Origin: a virus
DNA: 64,000 bases
Reading direction: 5' to 3' (one strand)
IMG/VR virus record: IMGVR_UViG_3300027659_000009
Location: 64,001 to 128,000 of that record
Below are positions 17,079 to 47,251 of this stretch, piece by piece; position 1 is the first letter of the stretch, and each line of letters begins with the position of its first letter. The notes below the pieces were generated by a model, which saw nothing but the letters and a program-made list of their open reading frames with translations, ran no database searches and was not told where the DNA came from. Position numbers and translations under genes: made by a program.

Positions 17079-17405
17079 ATGGATTATATTATAGATGAAA
17101 TTTACGAAATTTTTTGTGACACTGACAAACTACTTACAGTAACCTTTAAGGTTGAGGGAGACATTGAAGATTCTTATAGAGAATTGATTGACAGTGAATA
17201 TTACAATTGGTGTAACGAACATTATATTACCGAAGGTGAAAACTTAGTAGACTATGGTTATTATGATGATGAAGATGAGAACATACCAGACTTCTTTAAT
17301 CACAACAAATGGAATATGTACTACTCCAATGAAGATATGATTATAGAATACCTTTACGAGAACTATTCAGATTTGAGAACTTTACCTTCACCAAAGGTAG
17401 ATTAA
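17079..17405 (+). CDS. Acidic hypothetical protein
   Basis: TATTTAT at 17057. Confidence 0.6.
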   Translation: MDYIIDEIYEIFCDTDKLLTVTFKVEGDIEDSYRELIDSEYYNWCNEHYITEGENLVDYGYYDDEDENIPDFFNHNKWNMYYSNEDMIIEYLYENYSDLRTLPSPKVD

Positions 17406-19786
17406 TCTCTCCAATCCTGAAAGTACCCATCGGCAAACTCTACATAAATAACATCATCATTGTTAGTTTGAACCCTCCATTCCGTTGCACTACTAACAGA
17501 ATTATCGAGACTATAATGATGACTATCATCATAAATGTATACGTGGAAACCAAATAGTTTAGATAATATTAATTCAGAATCTGAATAATCAAACCCCATA
17601 GAAAATAAATTGTATATATATGGTGGTTTTAATTTAGATGATACTTTATCAATTAAGTCTTCAGTAACTGATTCGTTTATATCACCCATCGTATGAATCT
17701 GTAGATTCTCAACACCTTTATCGAAATCTGCCCAATCACCATTAGTCCATTCTCTATAAACTAATTCACTATTGTTTTTATTTATAAGTGCAGTACAAGT
17801 TTGTGTTTCACCATCTACCATTAAATCTTTACCGAAAACAATATTGAGTATTGGTACCCATTCAGATACAGATATACCTAAAGATTTTAAGTCAGAAAAA
17901 TATGGTGGGTTAATTATATTTGAAATTTTTTGGTAAAATGTTTTTTTTTTATCGATAGACTCGTTAACTAACTCATTATCACCACCTACCAAATTAACTT
18001 TTAAATTGACACCATTTTCTTCTCCCCACTGTTTAAATTCAATGGCGTGTGGTTCTCTATCTTCCCACATTTCGATCTGATTAACATTAGGGAATCTATT
18101 CAGTAGACTTTTAATAGTATTAATTTTACTAGACAAAGTATCACCATTACCCTTATAGTGGTATTCGTCAAACGATATATTATGTAATAATAATAATTCC
18201 TCTATTTGTTCTGCCTGATGTGGTATTCTACCCGTTAACATTATTACTAAAGTATCTGGATTAGATTTCTCTCTTAGGTAATCTGTAACAGTAGTTTCTA
18301 TAGGTTGTATATCGAATACCGCATCGTCCAAAGATTCAGGTTTACTCCACCATCCTATATGTGGGTATTCTTTACCAGTAAATTCCTCCCATTGTTTCTT
18401 ACCTTCTTCGGGGTGTGGTGTCTTCATTAATGTACCGTCAAAATCGAATATTGAAATCTTATTAATTAGGTTGTAATTTTCTTTTAAAAGTTTTATTTTC
18501 TTATTGTATCTTACACTTTCGTTTAAGTCTAATACACTACCCGAAACCCAATTAGATAATTCATCAATAGGGACAATATGTGTTTGATCATCGTATGTGA
18601 ATTTAACTTTATTGTTTTTAAAGTCGATATCGTTACTGTATAATGATATTATACCATTTCTAGCCATATAATATTCACCTTGTGAAGTAGTATCAGATAT
18701 TTTTTTAAAACCTAACTTATTAAGTAAATCTAAAACATACTTTCTATTTATTATTAACTCCTCTAAGTCTATATCTTCTGATTCAGTAATTTTTTCTATT
18801 GTGGATTTTAATGATCTGTTTAGTTCCGTAATTACATCATTTACACCATCACTATCCATCCATTCACCATAGTAGGCATCCTCCAAACCAACCTCAGGTT
18901 GTATTTCCGCATCTTTTAATTCAGAAAGATTAAGTAGATTCTTTTCTTTTACTATTTCTATTAATTCATCGTATGGTATGTTAATACAATAATTACCGTA
19001 CCTACAACTACTTTTATTGGTGTCGTATTTAATTTCTTCACTATAGGTTTTTCTTACACTATCTTGTCTAGCCCTAGTTACTACAATACTCATCTCACCT
19101 ATGTAATCATCAACCACCCTTTCGTAATATTCTTTAGGTAATACTTTCTCTAAAAAATCGCTAACCTCTGTTTCTACAATACTTTTACCGTCTTTACCTG
19201 GCCATTCAGACAACCCTGACATTATTGCCAAAGTTTCTAAGTGTTCTACTGTTTCATCATTAGTACTGACATAATCGAACTCGGATGTTTCTATATCTTC
19301 ATATGAATCACTGTAAGAACTAAACGCATCGTAATACTTCCATAAGTCATCATCACCTAACCCTGAGAAATAATTTTCCCAGTCATCCCTTTCTAAACTT
19401 ATTGAGATTTTTCCATCCTCAAAATCTAAACATGGGACATCACCAGAATTCGAACATAATTTAAACCACCCTCCGATTAGTGAATCTAATTTATTACGAT
19501 TTTCATCATATAATGTATCAATATAATTATTTAATTCTTGACTATTTAATAAAGATATATTATTCAAAAAATTGAGAAGAGGACCTTCTCTATCTACTTC
19601 CATAGTATCGTAATCGCCAATACCTTTATTATAGTACCAAAGTCTATATAAATCTAATACCTCAGATTTATCCAACCCAAATTCATCTTTAAGTATTTTA
19701 AACACTTGATCCTTATTGGAGGTATCGTCAATTTTTTTATCCAAATAGGAAAGTATTTTTACCTCAAATTTTGTAAGTTTGTCCAT
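17402..19786 (-). CDS. Polyprotein: acidic N-region, HAD phosphatase (RNA-repair HAD-like) and two PPY modules
   Basis: IFDFDGTL, MLTGR, WEDR; domains joined by LNES/LKE/VNES/INES; minus-strand TATTTAT at 19791-19797. Confidence 0.8.
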   Translation of the reverse strand: MDKLTKFEVKILSYLDKKIDDTSNKDQVFKILKDEFGLDKSEVLDLYRLWYYNKGIGDYDTMEVDREGPLLNFLNNISLLNSQELNNYIDTLYDENRNKLDSLIGGWFKLCSNSGDVPCLDFEDGKISISLERDDWENYFSGLGDDDLWKYYDAFSSYSDSYEDIETSEFDYVSTNDETVEHLETLAIMSGLSEWPGKDGKSIVETEVSDFLEKVLPKEYYERVVDDYIGEMSIVVTRARQDSVRKTYSEEIKYDTNKSSCRYGNYCINIPYDELIEIVKEKNLLNLSELKDAEIQPEVGLEDAYYGEWMDSDGVNDVITELNRSLKSTIEKITESEDIDLEELIINRKYVLDLLNKLGFKKISDTTSQGEYYMARNGIISLYSNDIDFKNNKVKFTYDDQTHIVPIDELSNWVSGSVLDLNESVRYNKKIKLLKENYNLINKISIFDFDGTLMKTPHPEEGKKQWEEFTGKEYPHIGWWSKPESLDDAVFDIQPIETTVTDYLREKSNPDTLVIMLTGRIPHQAEQIEELLLLHNISFDEYHYKGNGDTLSSKINTIKSLLNRFPNVNQIEMWEDREPHAIEFKQWGEENGVNLKVNLVGGDNELVNESIDKKKTFYQKISNIINPPYFSDLKSLGISVSEWVPILNIVFGKDLMVDGETQTCTALINKNNSELVYREWTNGDWADFDKGVENLQIHTMGDINESVTEDLIDKVSSKLKPPYIYNLFSMGFDYSDSELILSKLFGFHVYIYDDSHHYSLDNSVSSATEWRVQTNNDDVIYVEFADGYFQDWRD

Positions 19787-23214: not shown

Positions 23215-23371
23215 ATGTGTTAGAGTTATTGAAAGTTGTATTACATTAGAACAACTTAAGGTTGCCAAAAAATATGCAGAACTTTACAATAAAAAGTATG
23301 AAGACTTTTTGGGTTATAATATGTTAATAAGAAAAATAAATAAAAATGAAGAGAGCCTTAACTTACGATGA
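23180..23371 (+). CDS. Hypothetical protein
   Basis: VIESCITLEQL..AKKY motif; overlapping operon. Confidence 0.6.
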   Translation: MGIIELLKAKNKCVRVIESCITLEQLKVAKKYAELYNKKYEDFLGYNMLIRKINKNEESLNLR

Positions 23372-24416
23372 TATTCTATTAGTACCTAAGTACTCAGAAA
23401 TAGAAACCAGAGGTAGTATTAATTTAACCACATTGGTTAGTAGAAGATATGGAATCCTACAACCATATGTCGCATCTTGTATGGATACAGTATGTGGGTA
23501 TGAGATGGCAATTAAAATGGTTGAATTAGGTGGTGTTGGTTGTATACATAGATTTATGACTGTTGACAAACAATGTGAACAAGTATCTAAAGTTTTGGAA
23601 TATATAACTAATAACCATATGTACGAAGAATGGGGAGTTATGTACGATGATTGGCACTCAGAAATTCCCAATATCCCAGTTATGGCTGCGGTAGGTATTA
23701 GTGAGTCTGACATTGAACGTGCTAAACGATTGGTAAGTTGTGGGGTTAATATCATTCTGATTGATGTGGCTCACGGACATCATATAAATGTTAAAAAGAT
23801 GATAAAGTCTTTAAGGGAATCACTACCTTCTAAAGTTGATATCATTGCGGGTAACATTTCTACTGAAGAATCGGCAATTGATTTATGTGAGTGGGGTGTC
23901 GATGGATTAAGAGTTGGTATTGGCGGTGGTAGTTTGTGTACCACCAGAATTCAAACAGGTCACGGTGTACCCAATATAACATCTATAATTGATTGTGTTA
24001 AGGGATCTAAAGTACCTGTTATGGCGGATGGTGGTATCAGAAGTAGTGGTGACATTGCAAAGGCATTATCAATTGGTGCAGATTGTGTAATGTTAGGTTC
24101 ACTATTGGCTGGCACCAAAGAATCACCAGGTAAAATTATTACGAATGGTGATGGAATTCTATGTAAAAAATATAGAGGTTCCGCTAGTTTAGAAACTAAA
24201 TCATCTCACGGTCAATCAACAAAACACGTAGAGGGTGAGTCTACATTAATACCTTATAAAGGTAGTGTTGATATTGTTATAGAGAAATTAACAGATGGTG
24301 TTAAGTCAGCACTTTCTTATAGTGGATCAAACACTATCAAAACTTTCCAATTAAAATCTGAGATAGTTGAGATTACACCATCTGGTATGGTAGAGTCTAA
24401 ACCACACTTGCTTTGA
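23346..24416 (+). CDS. guaB: IMP dehydrogenase / GMP reductase (no CBS domains)
   Basis: LTYDDILLVP, MDTV, IDVAHGH, GIGGGSLCTTR, ADGGI, VEG. GuaB versus GuaC cannot be resolved by eye. Confidence 0.85.
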   Translation: MKRALTYDDILLVPKYSEIETRGSINLTTLVSRRYGILQPYVASCMDTVCGYEMAIKMVELGGVGCIHRFMTVDKQCEQVSKVLEYITNNHMYEEWGVMYDDWHSEIPNIPVMAAVGISESDIERAKRLVSCGVNIILIDVAHGHHINVKKMIKSLRESLPSKVDIIAGNISTEESAIDLCEWGVDGLRVGIGGGSLCTTRIQTGHGVPNITSIIDCVKGSKVPVMADGGIRSSGDIAKALSIGADCVMLGSLLAGTKESPGKIITNGDGILCKKYRGSASLETKSSHGQSTKHVEGESTLIPYKGSVDIVIEKLTDGVKSALSYSGSNTIKTFQLKSEIVEITPSGMVESKPHLL

Positions 24417-44830: not shown

Positions 44831-45883
44831 ATGAATAGAGAAACGTATTTAGTGAGAGTATTAGATATGATTATCAGAGATAGTCAGATAGAAGGAAAGA
44901 ATATTATATATCCTTTCTCTTTACCCTTGTATTCACTTCAGAACAATCAATCTTATTCACCGTTACATGATAATTTTATTAAATACTGTAAGGATCAGTA
45001 TGGATTGTCTGAGGAAGAGTCTAGGTATATGTGGTATGACTATAGTACTATTATGGGTAGGACTGTAAAAGATGAAGATACTGAAACACCTGAGGAGGAT
45101 TATATAGATGGGATGATTTACACACCTTTAGATGAAATATATTTATATGGTAATTTAGAACCACAAGAGAGGGATGTAAAAGAATCATTAAGGGTATATG
45201 GTTTCAATAGTGAGGGACACTATAAGTTCTTTATGAGAGTATATAATAGAATCATTGACTCGATAGAAATAAAACATTTAGGGAATGATAATCATTATGT
45301 TTTATTCATTAATGAATTCCGTAGAACTAGAGATGGTTTATTCGGGTTACGTTTATTAACAGATATTGGTAAATGTGATAAAGACTTTATAACATTTTCT
45401 TTAAGTTATACAGAATATATCTTCAGATGTTGTATAGATATATTAACAGAAGGGTTACCAGATGGTGGACAATATGTGGCGATTACTTTAAGTGATATGA
45501 TATTAGAATACATCTATAAAAATGTATTTCAAAATAAAATACTTCAAAGGGGAATTTCATTAAATGGAATTAATGAATCAGAGGTGAGAATGGATCGTTT
45601 TATGGAAAAGATATTACAGTTCTTAATTGATGATACATACTATATAGAAGATAATTTAATACAACTTCCATTCACTAATAAAACAGTGTCTATTCACTAT
45701 ACAAATACATACACTGAATGGAGTATATTAGATGTTATAACATATATACAAGAACCACCAAAATCATTTACTAATTACTGTGTAGATACATATGGGTTAG
45801 ATTCAGAATCCATTAGTTTAGTATGGGATAAGTATAGAGTATTCCTAATGGAGAACTTCCTTAGTCTAACAAAAAGATATTAA
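44831..45883 (+). CDS. YC..YGL repeat-domain polyprotein (two clear copies)
   Basis: YCKDQYGL and YCVDTYGL; INES linker; TATTTAT near 44819. Confidence 0.75.
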   Translation: MNRETYLVRVLDMIIRDSQIEGKNIIYPFSLPLYSLQNNQSYSPLHDNFIKYCKDQYGLSEEESRYMWYDYSTIMGRTVKDEDTETPEEDYIDGMIYTPLDEIYLYGNLEPQERDVKESLRVYGFNSEGHYKFFMRVYNRIIDSIEIKHLGNDNHYVLFINEFRRTRDGLFGLRLLTDIGKCDKDFITFSLSYTEYIFRCCIDILTEGLPDGGQYVAITLSDMILEYIYKNVFQNKILQRGISLNGINESEVRMDRFMEKILQFLIDDTYYIEDNLIQLPFTNKTVSIHYTNTYTEWSILDVITYIQEPPKSFTNYCVDTYGLDSESISLVWDKYRVFLMENFLSLTKRY

Positions 45884-45923
45884 TTTATTTGTGTATGTCA
45901 TTTATTATTACTACCTTTGGTAT

Positions 45924-46090
45924 GTTGGTGGTAGTACCGAAACAGGCGTACATCTGAAATAGATAGTGTGAAGGGATCAAAGGTCGGTTAGTCTAAGGTT
46001 TCCCTTATATAAAAATATAAGACAGGTCGGAGTATACCCTCTTAGAGAAGAACCTGTTTCTCTGACCCGTCTCGGTTATTAACCACTGAC
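45924..46090 (+). ncRNA. Candidate structured ncRNA between convergent host-type promoters
   Basis: Terminal stem GTTGGTGGTAGTACCGA / TCGGTTATTAACCACTGAC with internal hairpins; promoters at 45888-45919 (+) and 46095-46126 (-). Confidence 0.55.
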
Positions 46091-46151
46091 AATATAAAGG
46101 TACGAATAATTTTCGACATTACCAAATATTTATTAATATATTATTAAAGAA

Positions 46152-46568
46152 ATGAAGGTAACCATTAAAGGAATCATTAAGGAATCGAATGATAATAAAC
46201 AAAGGTATTACGATAAAGTATCTAAGGTAATACATCTACCATATTTAAGGGATCTTATATCATTAGGTGTACCACCAGATGAATGGAAACCTATATTATC
46301 TATTGTTTTTAAACAACCTGTGGCGATATCTGTTCACTCTATGGGTGATGAAATTAAAAGTGGGTATGTAATAGATAAATTTACACAAATCATTTATGAT
46401 GAAGATTCAAATGGTTATTATATAATAAGAGAATATGATAAGTTCCATAATAAAACATATCAATATAGAAGTATGGATAATTTTTGGGAGAAATCATTAT
46501 TTAATGATAAGGGAGACTGTGTATATAAATCAAACTCTAAAGGTATTATATTTGATTTAAGGTATTGA
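46152..46568 (+). CDS. Leader plus PPY module with YD-like repeats
   Basis: IKGIIKES; IHLPYLRDLISLGVP..EW.PIL; TATTTAT at 46127. Confidence 0.7.
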   Translation: MKVTIKGIIKESNDNKQRYYDKVSKVIHLPYLRDLISLGVPPDEWKPILSIVFKQPVAISVHSMGDEIKSGYVIDKFTQIIYDEDSNGYYIIREYDKFHNKTYQYRSMDNFWEKSLFNDKGDCVYKSNSKGIIFDLRY

Positions 46569-46617
46569 CTTTTTAATTTATTATAGTTAATATTGTATCA
46601 TAGTTGTTTGATATATT

Positions 46618-46758
46618 AGTCTACGGGGTTCGTTCCTTCCTCCCCACCCTATGGAAGGGAAAGGTGATTCTGGATGAACGAAAGTTTGTCATCACTGAAC
46701 AACGTAGACTCGATGGGATCAGTAACATATCGTACAAAGGTATGAATACAATCCCATC
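46618..46758 (+). ncRNA. Candidate three-way-junction ncRNA plus 3' hairpin
   Basis: AGTCTACG/CGTAGACT, CCTTCC/GGAAGG, GTGAT/ATCAC, GATGAAC-GAAA-GTTTGTC, GATGGGAT/ATCCCATC. Confidence 0.55.
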
Positions 46759-46836
46759 ACTATTAAAGGGATAATTTAATCATCGGATACTGTTAAAAGA
46801 TTCGTAAAAAATTATCCCTTTTTTTATTGTATTAAA

Positions 46837-46868
46837 TTTGACATTGTAATATATAATCACTATATTTG
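46837..46868 (+). promoter_or_regulatory. Bacteroidota-type promoter firing into a noncoding GC-rich region
   Basis: TTTG(ACATTGT)-N20-TATATTTG. Confidence 0.65.
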
Positions 46869-46899
46869 TAGTATGAAAAACATCTAAACCATATATATA

Positions 46900-47223
46900 G
46901 TCCGTAGGGGGAGAGGGGTACTTTGTGTACATTAATATACAATACCTCTCCCCTAGAGGGGAGTCCCCCTCAGGTACCCCTACATCACCCCCCTTCCCTC
47001 TGGGGGTGTTTTGACACAAAGGGGGTAGGTGATGTTGTCCACAAATTTTCCAGGAAATTTTAAGGTTTAGAAACAAAGTCTTTTTCCGTTCAGTTTATTT
47101 TAATTTATATGAGTGAACTTTGGGTTCATCTATAGTGTCTATAATAAACAATTATATCCCCCACAAACAACACCCCTTTCTGGTGAGATAAGGGTACCCT
47201 TCAAAATTTTCCAGGAATTTTTT
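46900..47223. other. GC-tract/hairpin region with two AAATTTTCCAGGAA[A]TTTT quasi-palindromes
   Basis: G/C runs in an AT-rich genome; palindromes at 47043-47061 and 47203-47223. Confidence 0.6.
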
Positions 47224-47251
47224 CGTTTCCAAATATTTCAATATTTATAAT

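Follow-up and report, generated by a model that had tools for sequence, protein, structure and literature searches.

Temperate phages contain face-to-face promoter/antisense units, such as Pant/Psar of P22, with its sar RNA, and pR/pL of coliphage 186. The locus described here lies in a 64,000-nt stretch of DNA (hereafter the window, always at its full length), consisting of bases 64001-128000 of the 166-kb IMG/VR record IMGVR_UViG_3300027659_000009, and it is similar to those units in having two host-type promoters that face each other over 60-180 bp and predicted complementary transcripts, one of which would serve a downstream gene as its leader, the other being a short non-coding RNA. It differs from them in that the overlap consists of a structured, conserved module, whose core is invariant and which in other phages stands alone behind a single promoter; moreover, the downstream gene is not conserved and no lysogeny switch is evident. 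The putL/putR sites of HK022 and the nut sites of lambda are promoter-proximal RNA modules. Here too a short stem-loop RNA is predicted just downstream of early promoters, in one or two copies per genome, and in the relatives that we call type D the module is likewise followed by terminators and co-directional genes; however, there is no sequence or model similarity to put or nut and, in the orientation shared by the whole family, the module of the window has no genes downstream.

As for the 6S RNAs (including 6S-Flavo and Bacteroidales-1), the unit in the window resembles them in its length of ~170 nt, in the long closing stem and in the promoter-like boxes at the stem base, and a 6S-like polymerase decoy had been proposed when the sequence was first read. 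This proposal is not supported: both the minimum-energy and the consensus fold are multi-branched, unlike the rod of 6S RNA with its large central bubble, at 90-150 nt most of the family is much shorter and lacks the closing stem, and no 6S model of Rfam matches either the window at gathering score or positions 45700-46300 at E <= 10. RNA anti-CRISPRs (Racr) are comparable as small, phage-only, promoter-driven RNAs with a strictly conserved hairpin and host-type promoters (expression being a prediction in our case), but the core of our family matches, as an exact 17-mer, no CRISPR repeat in 185,579 prokaryote genomes and is a single unit, not repeat-like. The 11 exact matches of the 17-mer in those genomes were nine chance matches and two phage contigs, none of them in an array, and both a CRISPR-repeat mimic and a copy or complement of a host RNA were discarded. 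Finally, RNA I and RNA II of ColE1 are structured sense and antisense RNAs from facing promoters, as predicted here, but no origin features were found at our locus, the unit is much shorter and its relatives often have one promoter only.

The record is 51% complete according to the CheckV estimate and has a G+C content of ~30%; its large proteins match only those of uncultured huge phages. The element is located between two plus-strand ORFs, 44831-45883 upstream and 46152-46568 downstream, neither of which matched any family, and the downstream ORF used as a query retrieved zero loci. No match was obtained by blastn of 3.1 kb against GenBank phage records, and ARAGORN predicted no tRNA or tmRNA in the window. 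We agree with the initial impression that there is no credible ORF inside the element, since none is longer than 31 aa and none has a frame conserved in L002, the relative used below for comparison.

Genes in the window are preceded by TTTG-N19-21-TAnnTTTG, the form that promoters take in Bacteroidota; the pattern was observed 25 times in the window, versus 11.4 expected. The two promoter-like sites that the sequence-only reading had placed at the borders of the element were found exactly there. The plus-strand site, TTTG-N20-TACCTTTG, spans 45888-45919 (-33 box TTTG at 45888-91, ATGTC at 45895-99, -7 box TACCTTTG at 45912-19), with a predicted start at ~45925-27, and the minus-strand site, TTTG-N20-TACCTTTA, spans 46126-46095 (TTTG at 46126-23, ATGTC at 46119-15, -7 box TACCTTTA at 46102-46095), with a predicted start at ~46087-89 and the -7 box 53 nt from the core described below. 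The two represent an unusual promoter subclass, TTTG-N3-ATGTC-N12-TACCTTTG: they have ATGTC and a TACCTTT box in common, and the latter is otherwise unique as a -7 box in the 166-kb record. Among the 25 strict promoter matches in that record, the usual -7 box is TATATTTG (18/25) and TACCTTTG is a single instance. At both sites the -33 and -7 boxes are kept across relatives while the spacers vary; precisely, the plus promoter is conserved, with a variable spacer, in the type A1 and A2 relatives. This promoter is also the only recognisable one for ORF 46152. We found no terminator-like site between 45888 and 46126, and canonical terminators are used by the phage nearby.

In L002, the protein upstream of the element is 56% identical to that of the window, and the corresponding ORF has a DNA identity of 69%. 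The plus promoter is instead 94% identical, the body of the element 86% and the minus promoter 88%, and the 51 nt surrounding the core are identical in the two. Promoters and body so similar in a relative whose flanking protein is so divergent show that the element is under selection.

Within the element, the hairpins ATCT/AGAT (45952-55 / 45961-64), GGGA/TCCC (45973-76 / 46001-04) and CTTATAT/ATATAAG (46004-10 / 46015-21), all of them recognised by the sequence-only reading, are present. The first, AUCU-GAAAU-AGAU (45952-45964), has one compensatory change, from C-G to A-U, in L002 and L016. The second, GGGA...UCCC (45973-46004), holds in its loop (45979-45994) AAAGGTCGGTTAGTCT, a degenerate direct copy of the core. 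The third, here called H1, is the central A/U hairpin CTTATAT-AAAA-ATATAAG (46004-46021), which adjoins the core; nearly all family members have a hairpin in this place, its sequence varies, and it is G+C-rich in L057 and L065. A fourth hairpin, ACAGGT/ACCTGT, had also been proposed: the two sequences exist, but their pairing is unsupported by the family alignment, in which the conserved hairpin at this site is AGAGAA/TTCTCT (46044-49 / 46058-63), with ACCTGT inside its loop. This hairpin, H2, reads AGAGAA-GAACCTGT-TTCTCT (46044-46063) and covaries across the family.

The near-invariant core of the family, GGTCGGAGTATACCCTCT, occupies 46025-46042, with a 17-mer common to the family members. 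Positions 46028-46043 can form a further hairpin, H0 (CGGAG-UAUACC-CUCU(U)), in which a G-U pair is replaced by G-C in L041. In the accessibility analysis the core was predicted to be mostly paired on both strands, with an open UAUA centre, hence it offers no obvious single-stranded seed. A long-range helix of 12 bp, P2, would join ACCGAAACAGGC on the plus strand (45936-45947) to ACCCGTCTCGGT (46065-46076), which begins with the conserved tail ACCC (46065-68); three of its pairs are G-U on the minus strand, the plus strand has three A-C mismatches, and one G-U is changed to A-U in L002. Fold z-scores versus shuffled sequences were modest, -2.55 for the plus and -2.80 for the minus strand. A three-way junction closed by GGU/ACC was considered and rejected, as the copy L087 has no AGGU; the H2 loops were also considered as anticodon loops or as TGT substrates, and rejected, as they are not conserved beyond one subtype.

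Comparison with related loci indicates that the element is not one isolated 167-nt RNA, and that its right half is a module of ~45 nt, made up of GGUCGGAGUAUACCCUCU, a covarying hairpin and ACCC. We searched for the family by scanning for GGTCGGAGTATACCCTC, with exact-pattern scans only. The core 17-mer was found in 16 viral and 47 metagenome stretches, which left ~30 distinct true members, on phage or metagenome contigs, once chance matches and duplicates were removed. Their layout is H1, (G)CA, GGUCGGAGUAUACCCUCU, H2, (A/G)ACC. In the window, positions 46025-46041 match the family core GGUCGGAGUAUACCCUC(U) exactly, H2 is AGAGAA/UUCUCU and GACCC comes after it. Other members have H2 stems such as CGAACC/GGUUCG, CGGGU/ACCCG, CGAUCC/GGAUCG and CAGGA/UCCUG; over 16 sequences, 100% of the cells were paired, and the third pair was GC in 9, AU in 4 and CG in 3. 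The covariance model R1 scored the window at 26.3 bits (E = 1e-5), a low value due to the longer H2 of the window. By this model, the record of the window has a single copy, and each of five further phage records, a complete 271-kb genome among them, has one or two; second copies are slightly altered, with the loop UCUACC or with loss of the AGGU prefix.

A promoter of strict pattern faces the module from the H2 side in 21 of the 31 true members, the window among them (the minus promoter, 46126-46095); ten fail the strict pattern, and a weaker form is visible by eye in most of the members outside it. The module is 26-100 nt downstream of the host-type promoter. A left, plus-side promoter is present in 8/31 members, all of types A and C. 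The members fall into five architectures. In type A1 (the window, L026, L038, L062, L002 and L016) the promoters face each other around ~175 bp; in type A2 (L036 and L061) the promoters and the right half are as in A1 and the left half is different, and the downstream ORFs of A1 and A2 are unrelated. In type B (L045 and others) the module begins 5 nt after a plus ORF and has the right-hand promoter only, with the -7 boxes TACCTTTG, TAACTTTG and TACCTTTG behind three different spacers. Type C (L008, L065 and others) has facing promoters. In type D (~12 loci, in jumbo phages of ~250-270 kb) the module has a terminator-plus-promoter block on either side and is surrounded by small genes, all directed leftward, and matching -7 boxes stand 23-32 nt upstream of leftward ORF starts, a distance which argues that the boxes act as promoters. 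Across the types, the flanking genes encode small uncharacterised proteins, which belong to different families from type to type.

Rfam gave chance matches only, in searches at gathering score for the 64 kb, at E <= 10 for the element (45700-46300) and at E <= 1 for 11 related loci. Full-text literature searches found nothing for the core sequence in either orientation and nothing relevant on structured RNAs of huge phages. The family is an undescribed one within a known kind, that of phage small RNAs with antisense partners, and the claim of a new conserved non-coding RNA locus is supported. The small RNAs of Bacteroidota phages are almost unexplored. The family is phage-only, and the large phages that carry it differ greatly, with a G+C content of 30% in our record and 38% in one relative of 271 kb and with unrelated proteins next to the module. 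Its conservation exceeds that of the surrounding proteins, and its 17-20-nt core has no match in host genomes. These properties together suggest a conserved partner that is worth finding.

The long terminal stem, on which the claim of a 167-nt element was based, does exist as complementarity: 45923-45932 (UGUUGGUGGU) pairs with 46082-46091 (ACCACUGACA), with a U-G and a G-U pair on the plus strand. We refer to it as P1. If it is read as an inverted duplication, its 5′ arm is equally the start of the left transcript, and its 3′ arm (ACCACTGACA) is equally the start of the minus-strand transcript. In type A2, in fact, the left half, read on the plus strand, aligns to the right half, read on the minus strand, with an alignment extending over promoter, RNA start and core (GUAGACUCCAACCUGCUU with GUAUACUCCGACCUGCUU), and the half-to-half alignment score of L036 is 59 versus a shuffle mean of 20 +/- 3.6. 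As its alignment indicates, L036 is an inverted duplication of promoter and RNA, i.e. two tail-to-tail genes, each with its own promoter. The same comparison in the window scores 44 versus 22.6 +/- 3.8 for shuffles, and the likeness is confined to the promoter and the ~35 nt after it, which is exactly the stem; hence the stem may be a historical relic and not a helix. In the clade of the window, two neighbouring transitions preserve wobble pairing on the plus strand, which counts toward a helix. As a caution for similar analyses, what looks like a long terminal stem between two facing promoters can have been left by an inverted gene duplication, without being an RNA helix.

The sequence-only reading held that G-U pairs favour the plus-strand RNA. 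This is correct for the outer stem and for several inner helices, but P2 fits the minus strand. In a hand count of G-U versus A-C events in the helices, ~11 favoured the window's plus strand and ~9 the minus strand, a rough balance. The wobble pairs of H1, H2, P1, GGGA/UUCC and the core hairpin (G-U on plus, an A-C mismatch on minus) fit the plus strand, and those of P2, of the A2 core/anti-core duplex and of H2 in L021 and A2 fit the minus strand. The consensus fold of each strand merely gathers that strand's own G-U pairs, and the folding energies of 43 instances gave no consistent sign for the choice of strand. In type D, only the minus sense of the module runs in the direction of the genes. 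The promoter evidence favours the minus strand of the window, with the structure evidence split, and on this basis we consider it slightly more likely than not that the minus RNA is the product of the family; the plus RNA is a plausible but less probable product, and a small remainder goes to both strands or neither.

The explanation that we prefer, with about an even chance of being right, is that the locus is a self-contained sense/antisense small-RNA cassette of a phage-only family, predicted to be transcribed from both ends. Of the three readings first offered (a polymerase decoy, a sense/antisense pair and a bidirectional origin), the pair agrees best with the data: each of the two facing promoters is conserved as a promoter and the stretch between them has no terminator, so that overlapping transcripts are predicted. 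Moreover, as ORF 46152 has the plus promoter as its only recognisable one, transcription of the same 165 bp is to be expected on both strands. The cassette would most likely be transcribed from both ends by the host RNA polymerase. The unit shared by the family would consist of a Bacteroidota-type promoter (in the window the minus one, with a start near 46088) and, 26-100 nt further on, the module, in which two or three covarying hairpins surround the near-invariant core, CAGAGGGUAUACUCCGACCUG when read on the minus strand. In the type of the window, a second facing promoter of the same subclass, with a start near 45925, would produce a plus transcript which is complementary to the minus RNA and continues as the 5′ leader of ORF 46152, and the result would be a sense/antisense pair. 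The terminal stem would then be a trace of the inverted duplication of promoter and RNA start, a duplication that in sister phages would still span the whole RNA and give two tail-to-tail genes. The neighbouring genes differ between types, which suggests that the cassette is autonomous. Against the pair, the minus transcripts predicted in the window have no downstream gene and no recognisable terminator.

In the sense/antisense cassette, the near-invariant hairpin could be the docking site of a conserved partner, for which a protein would be likelier than an RNA, and the facing transcript could limit the amount of free RNA. We found no complement of the core of at least 10 nt elsewhere in the complete 271-kb relative, where 9-10-mers were at or below chance. 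The search for a partner or target in the window's record likewise returned no complement of at least 10 nt except for 11-mers that are A+T-rich and attributable to chance and a single 11-mer within a coding region, and there was no complement of the 17 nt in the 185,579 prokaryote genomes. A long RNA target is therefore unlikely.

The main alternative is the one from which the analysis started, a single structured plus RNA of ~167 nt (45925 to ~46091), closed by the terminal stem, transcribed from the 45888 promoter and acting in trans, e.g. as a protein decoy, with a minus promoter that only trims or opposes it. Its features and its stem are present, and it is one of two live readings; we consider it unlikely, though deserving of attention. 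Conservation of the plus promoter extends over types A1, A2 and C, but types B and D are without it, and a plus transcript would be antisense to all the flanking genes of type D. The plus fold is slightly more stable (-52.7 versus -46.5 kcal/mol for the single sequence and -38.3 versus -33.4 for the consensus), the core hairpin is fully paired on this strand only, with its G-U to G-C change in L041, and wobble changes fit the plus strand in P1 (U-G and G-U), in GGGA/UUCC of L062 and in CGUAC/GUGUG; P2, however, fits the minus strand only, and the stem is accounted for by the inverted duplication. In addition, there is no terminator after the stem, so that such an RNA would be expected to run on into ORF 46152. 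A second, cis-acting alternative is that the module is a promoter-proximal RNA element that works on the transcribing polymerase, similarly to put/nut antitermination, or a regulatory leader of the downstream gene. The constant distance range from a host-type promoter (always 26-100 nt), the one or two copies per genome and the type D arrangement, where the module precedes terminator-plus-promoter blocks and co-directional genes, are all in line with it, as are types A and C, whose plus transcript carries the module ahead of an ORF; in the window, the plus strand has the module, ORF 46152 and then a terminator near 46767-46830. We regard it as quite improbable, given that in types A and B there is no gene downstream for the minus transcripts, that the downstream ORFs are non-homologous between types, that a separate promoter at 46837 serves the next plus genes and that the module has no likeness to any Rfam cis element.

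The last alternative places the function in the DNA, as a transcription-activated origin or a protein-binding site between the facing promoters, the RNAs being primers or by-products. The near balance of G-U and A-C departures between the strands is what is expected if neither RNA strand alone is selected, the core has a palindromic centre (GTATAC), an A+T-rich hairpin adjoins it in types A, B and C, and other conserved non-coding blocks are nearby. Nevertheless, H1, H2 and H3 covary so as to keep their pairing and are G+C-rich in some members, and no iterons were found, all of which weakens this explanation. In particular, covariation of the hairpin that adjoins the core, and its G+C-rich sequence in L057 and L065, show a structure as opposed to an A+T-rich unwinding element. 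The two half-sites of the core lack symmetry, as in a bulged hairpin and unlike an operator, and the type D promoters are unidirectional. The bidirectional R-loop origin primed by the two RNAs, suggested at the outset, is likewise disfavoured, with no iterons or direct-repeat family and with most relatives having one promoter facing the element. We judge a DNA-level function very improbable.

It is conceivable, though rather doubtful, that the invariant hairpin placed directly behind early host-type promoters represents an RNA of a new class in Bacteroidota phages, directed at polymerase or defence, which captures a conserved host protein. This protein would be either the RNA polymerase, with the RNA as a put-like modifier in a phylum with unusual promoters and translation signals, or an immunity protein, and the facing transcription would be a built-in timer. 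The cassette is ~240 bp in length with its own promoters and is hence clonable and directly testable in Flavobacterium or Bacteroides.

Some minor observations concern the element and its surroundings. The ATGTC of each promoter can be read as ATG TC., which gives small hydrophobic ORFs at 45895-45957 on the plus and 46119-46042 on the minus strand (MSFIITTFGMLVVVPKQAYI and MSKIIRTFILSVV..., i.e. MSFIITTF... and MSKIIRTF...); the plus-strand one has the same length and stop position in L002. We rejected them as genes, as their conservation tracks the promoter boxes and their lengths differ in type A2 relatives, and they probably arise as a by-product of the conserved promoters. An inverted repeat of 12 nt, with 92% complementarity, joins 45859-45870, at the end of ORF 44831-45883, to 45987-45998, in the loop of the GGGA/UCCC hairpin; it is not kept in L002.

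A second conserved non-coding block, 46569-46830, follows ORF 46152, has 80% identity to L002 and terminates in a canonical terminator (AAGGGATAAT...ATTATCCCTTTTTTT). It has no match in Rfam and is probably another structured RNA or a 3′ UTR. A third one, 46837-47251, with 78% identity to L002, is located behind a strong TTTG-N20-TATATTTG promoter and contains hairpins with G/C runs and the palindrome AAATTTTCCAGGAA twice. In type B relatives the module is directly followed by a block with G/C runs, of which only one short hairpin aligns with the block 46837-47251.

The type D phages (L003-L009, L012, L015, L054 and L057) have a near-identical block of ~70 nt before nearly every small leftward gene, GTAAATATAAAC..TTGACAgTAAAAAA..GAATTATTTT..AAAGTTATTAAC (for example L005, 2009-7452), often with a hairpin with an A6/U6 loop, and it looks like a combined terminator and promoter. 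The two phage contigs among the prokaryote genomes are L070 (DUKX01000146.1, in a Methanofastidiosum MAG) and L071 (CAZJDN010000279.1, in a Thiothrix MAG); their type D modules are nearly identical to those of the phage contigs L017 and L039, and both are probably mis-binned phage DNA. The same 18-nt core occurs in another scaffold, GAUUCGU...CCGACCC-AAA-GGGUCGGAGUAUACCCUCU-ACGAAUC, in L028, L032, L046, L052 and L063, four of which are ENA marine assemblies; this is either a relative or a coincidence. Elsewhere in the window, 17402-19786 on the minus strand encodes a 794-aa protein with the HAD domain of 'Swiss Army Knife' RNA-repair proteins, and 23346-24416 on the plus strand a protein with a full-length IMP dehydrogenase / GMP reductase domain.
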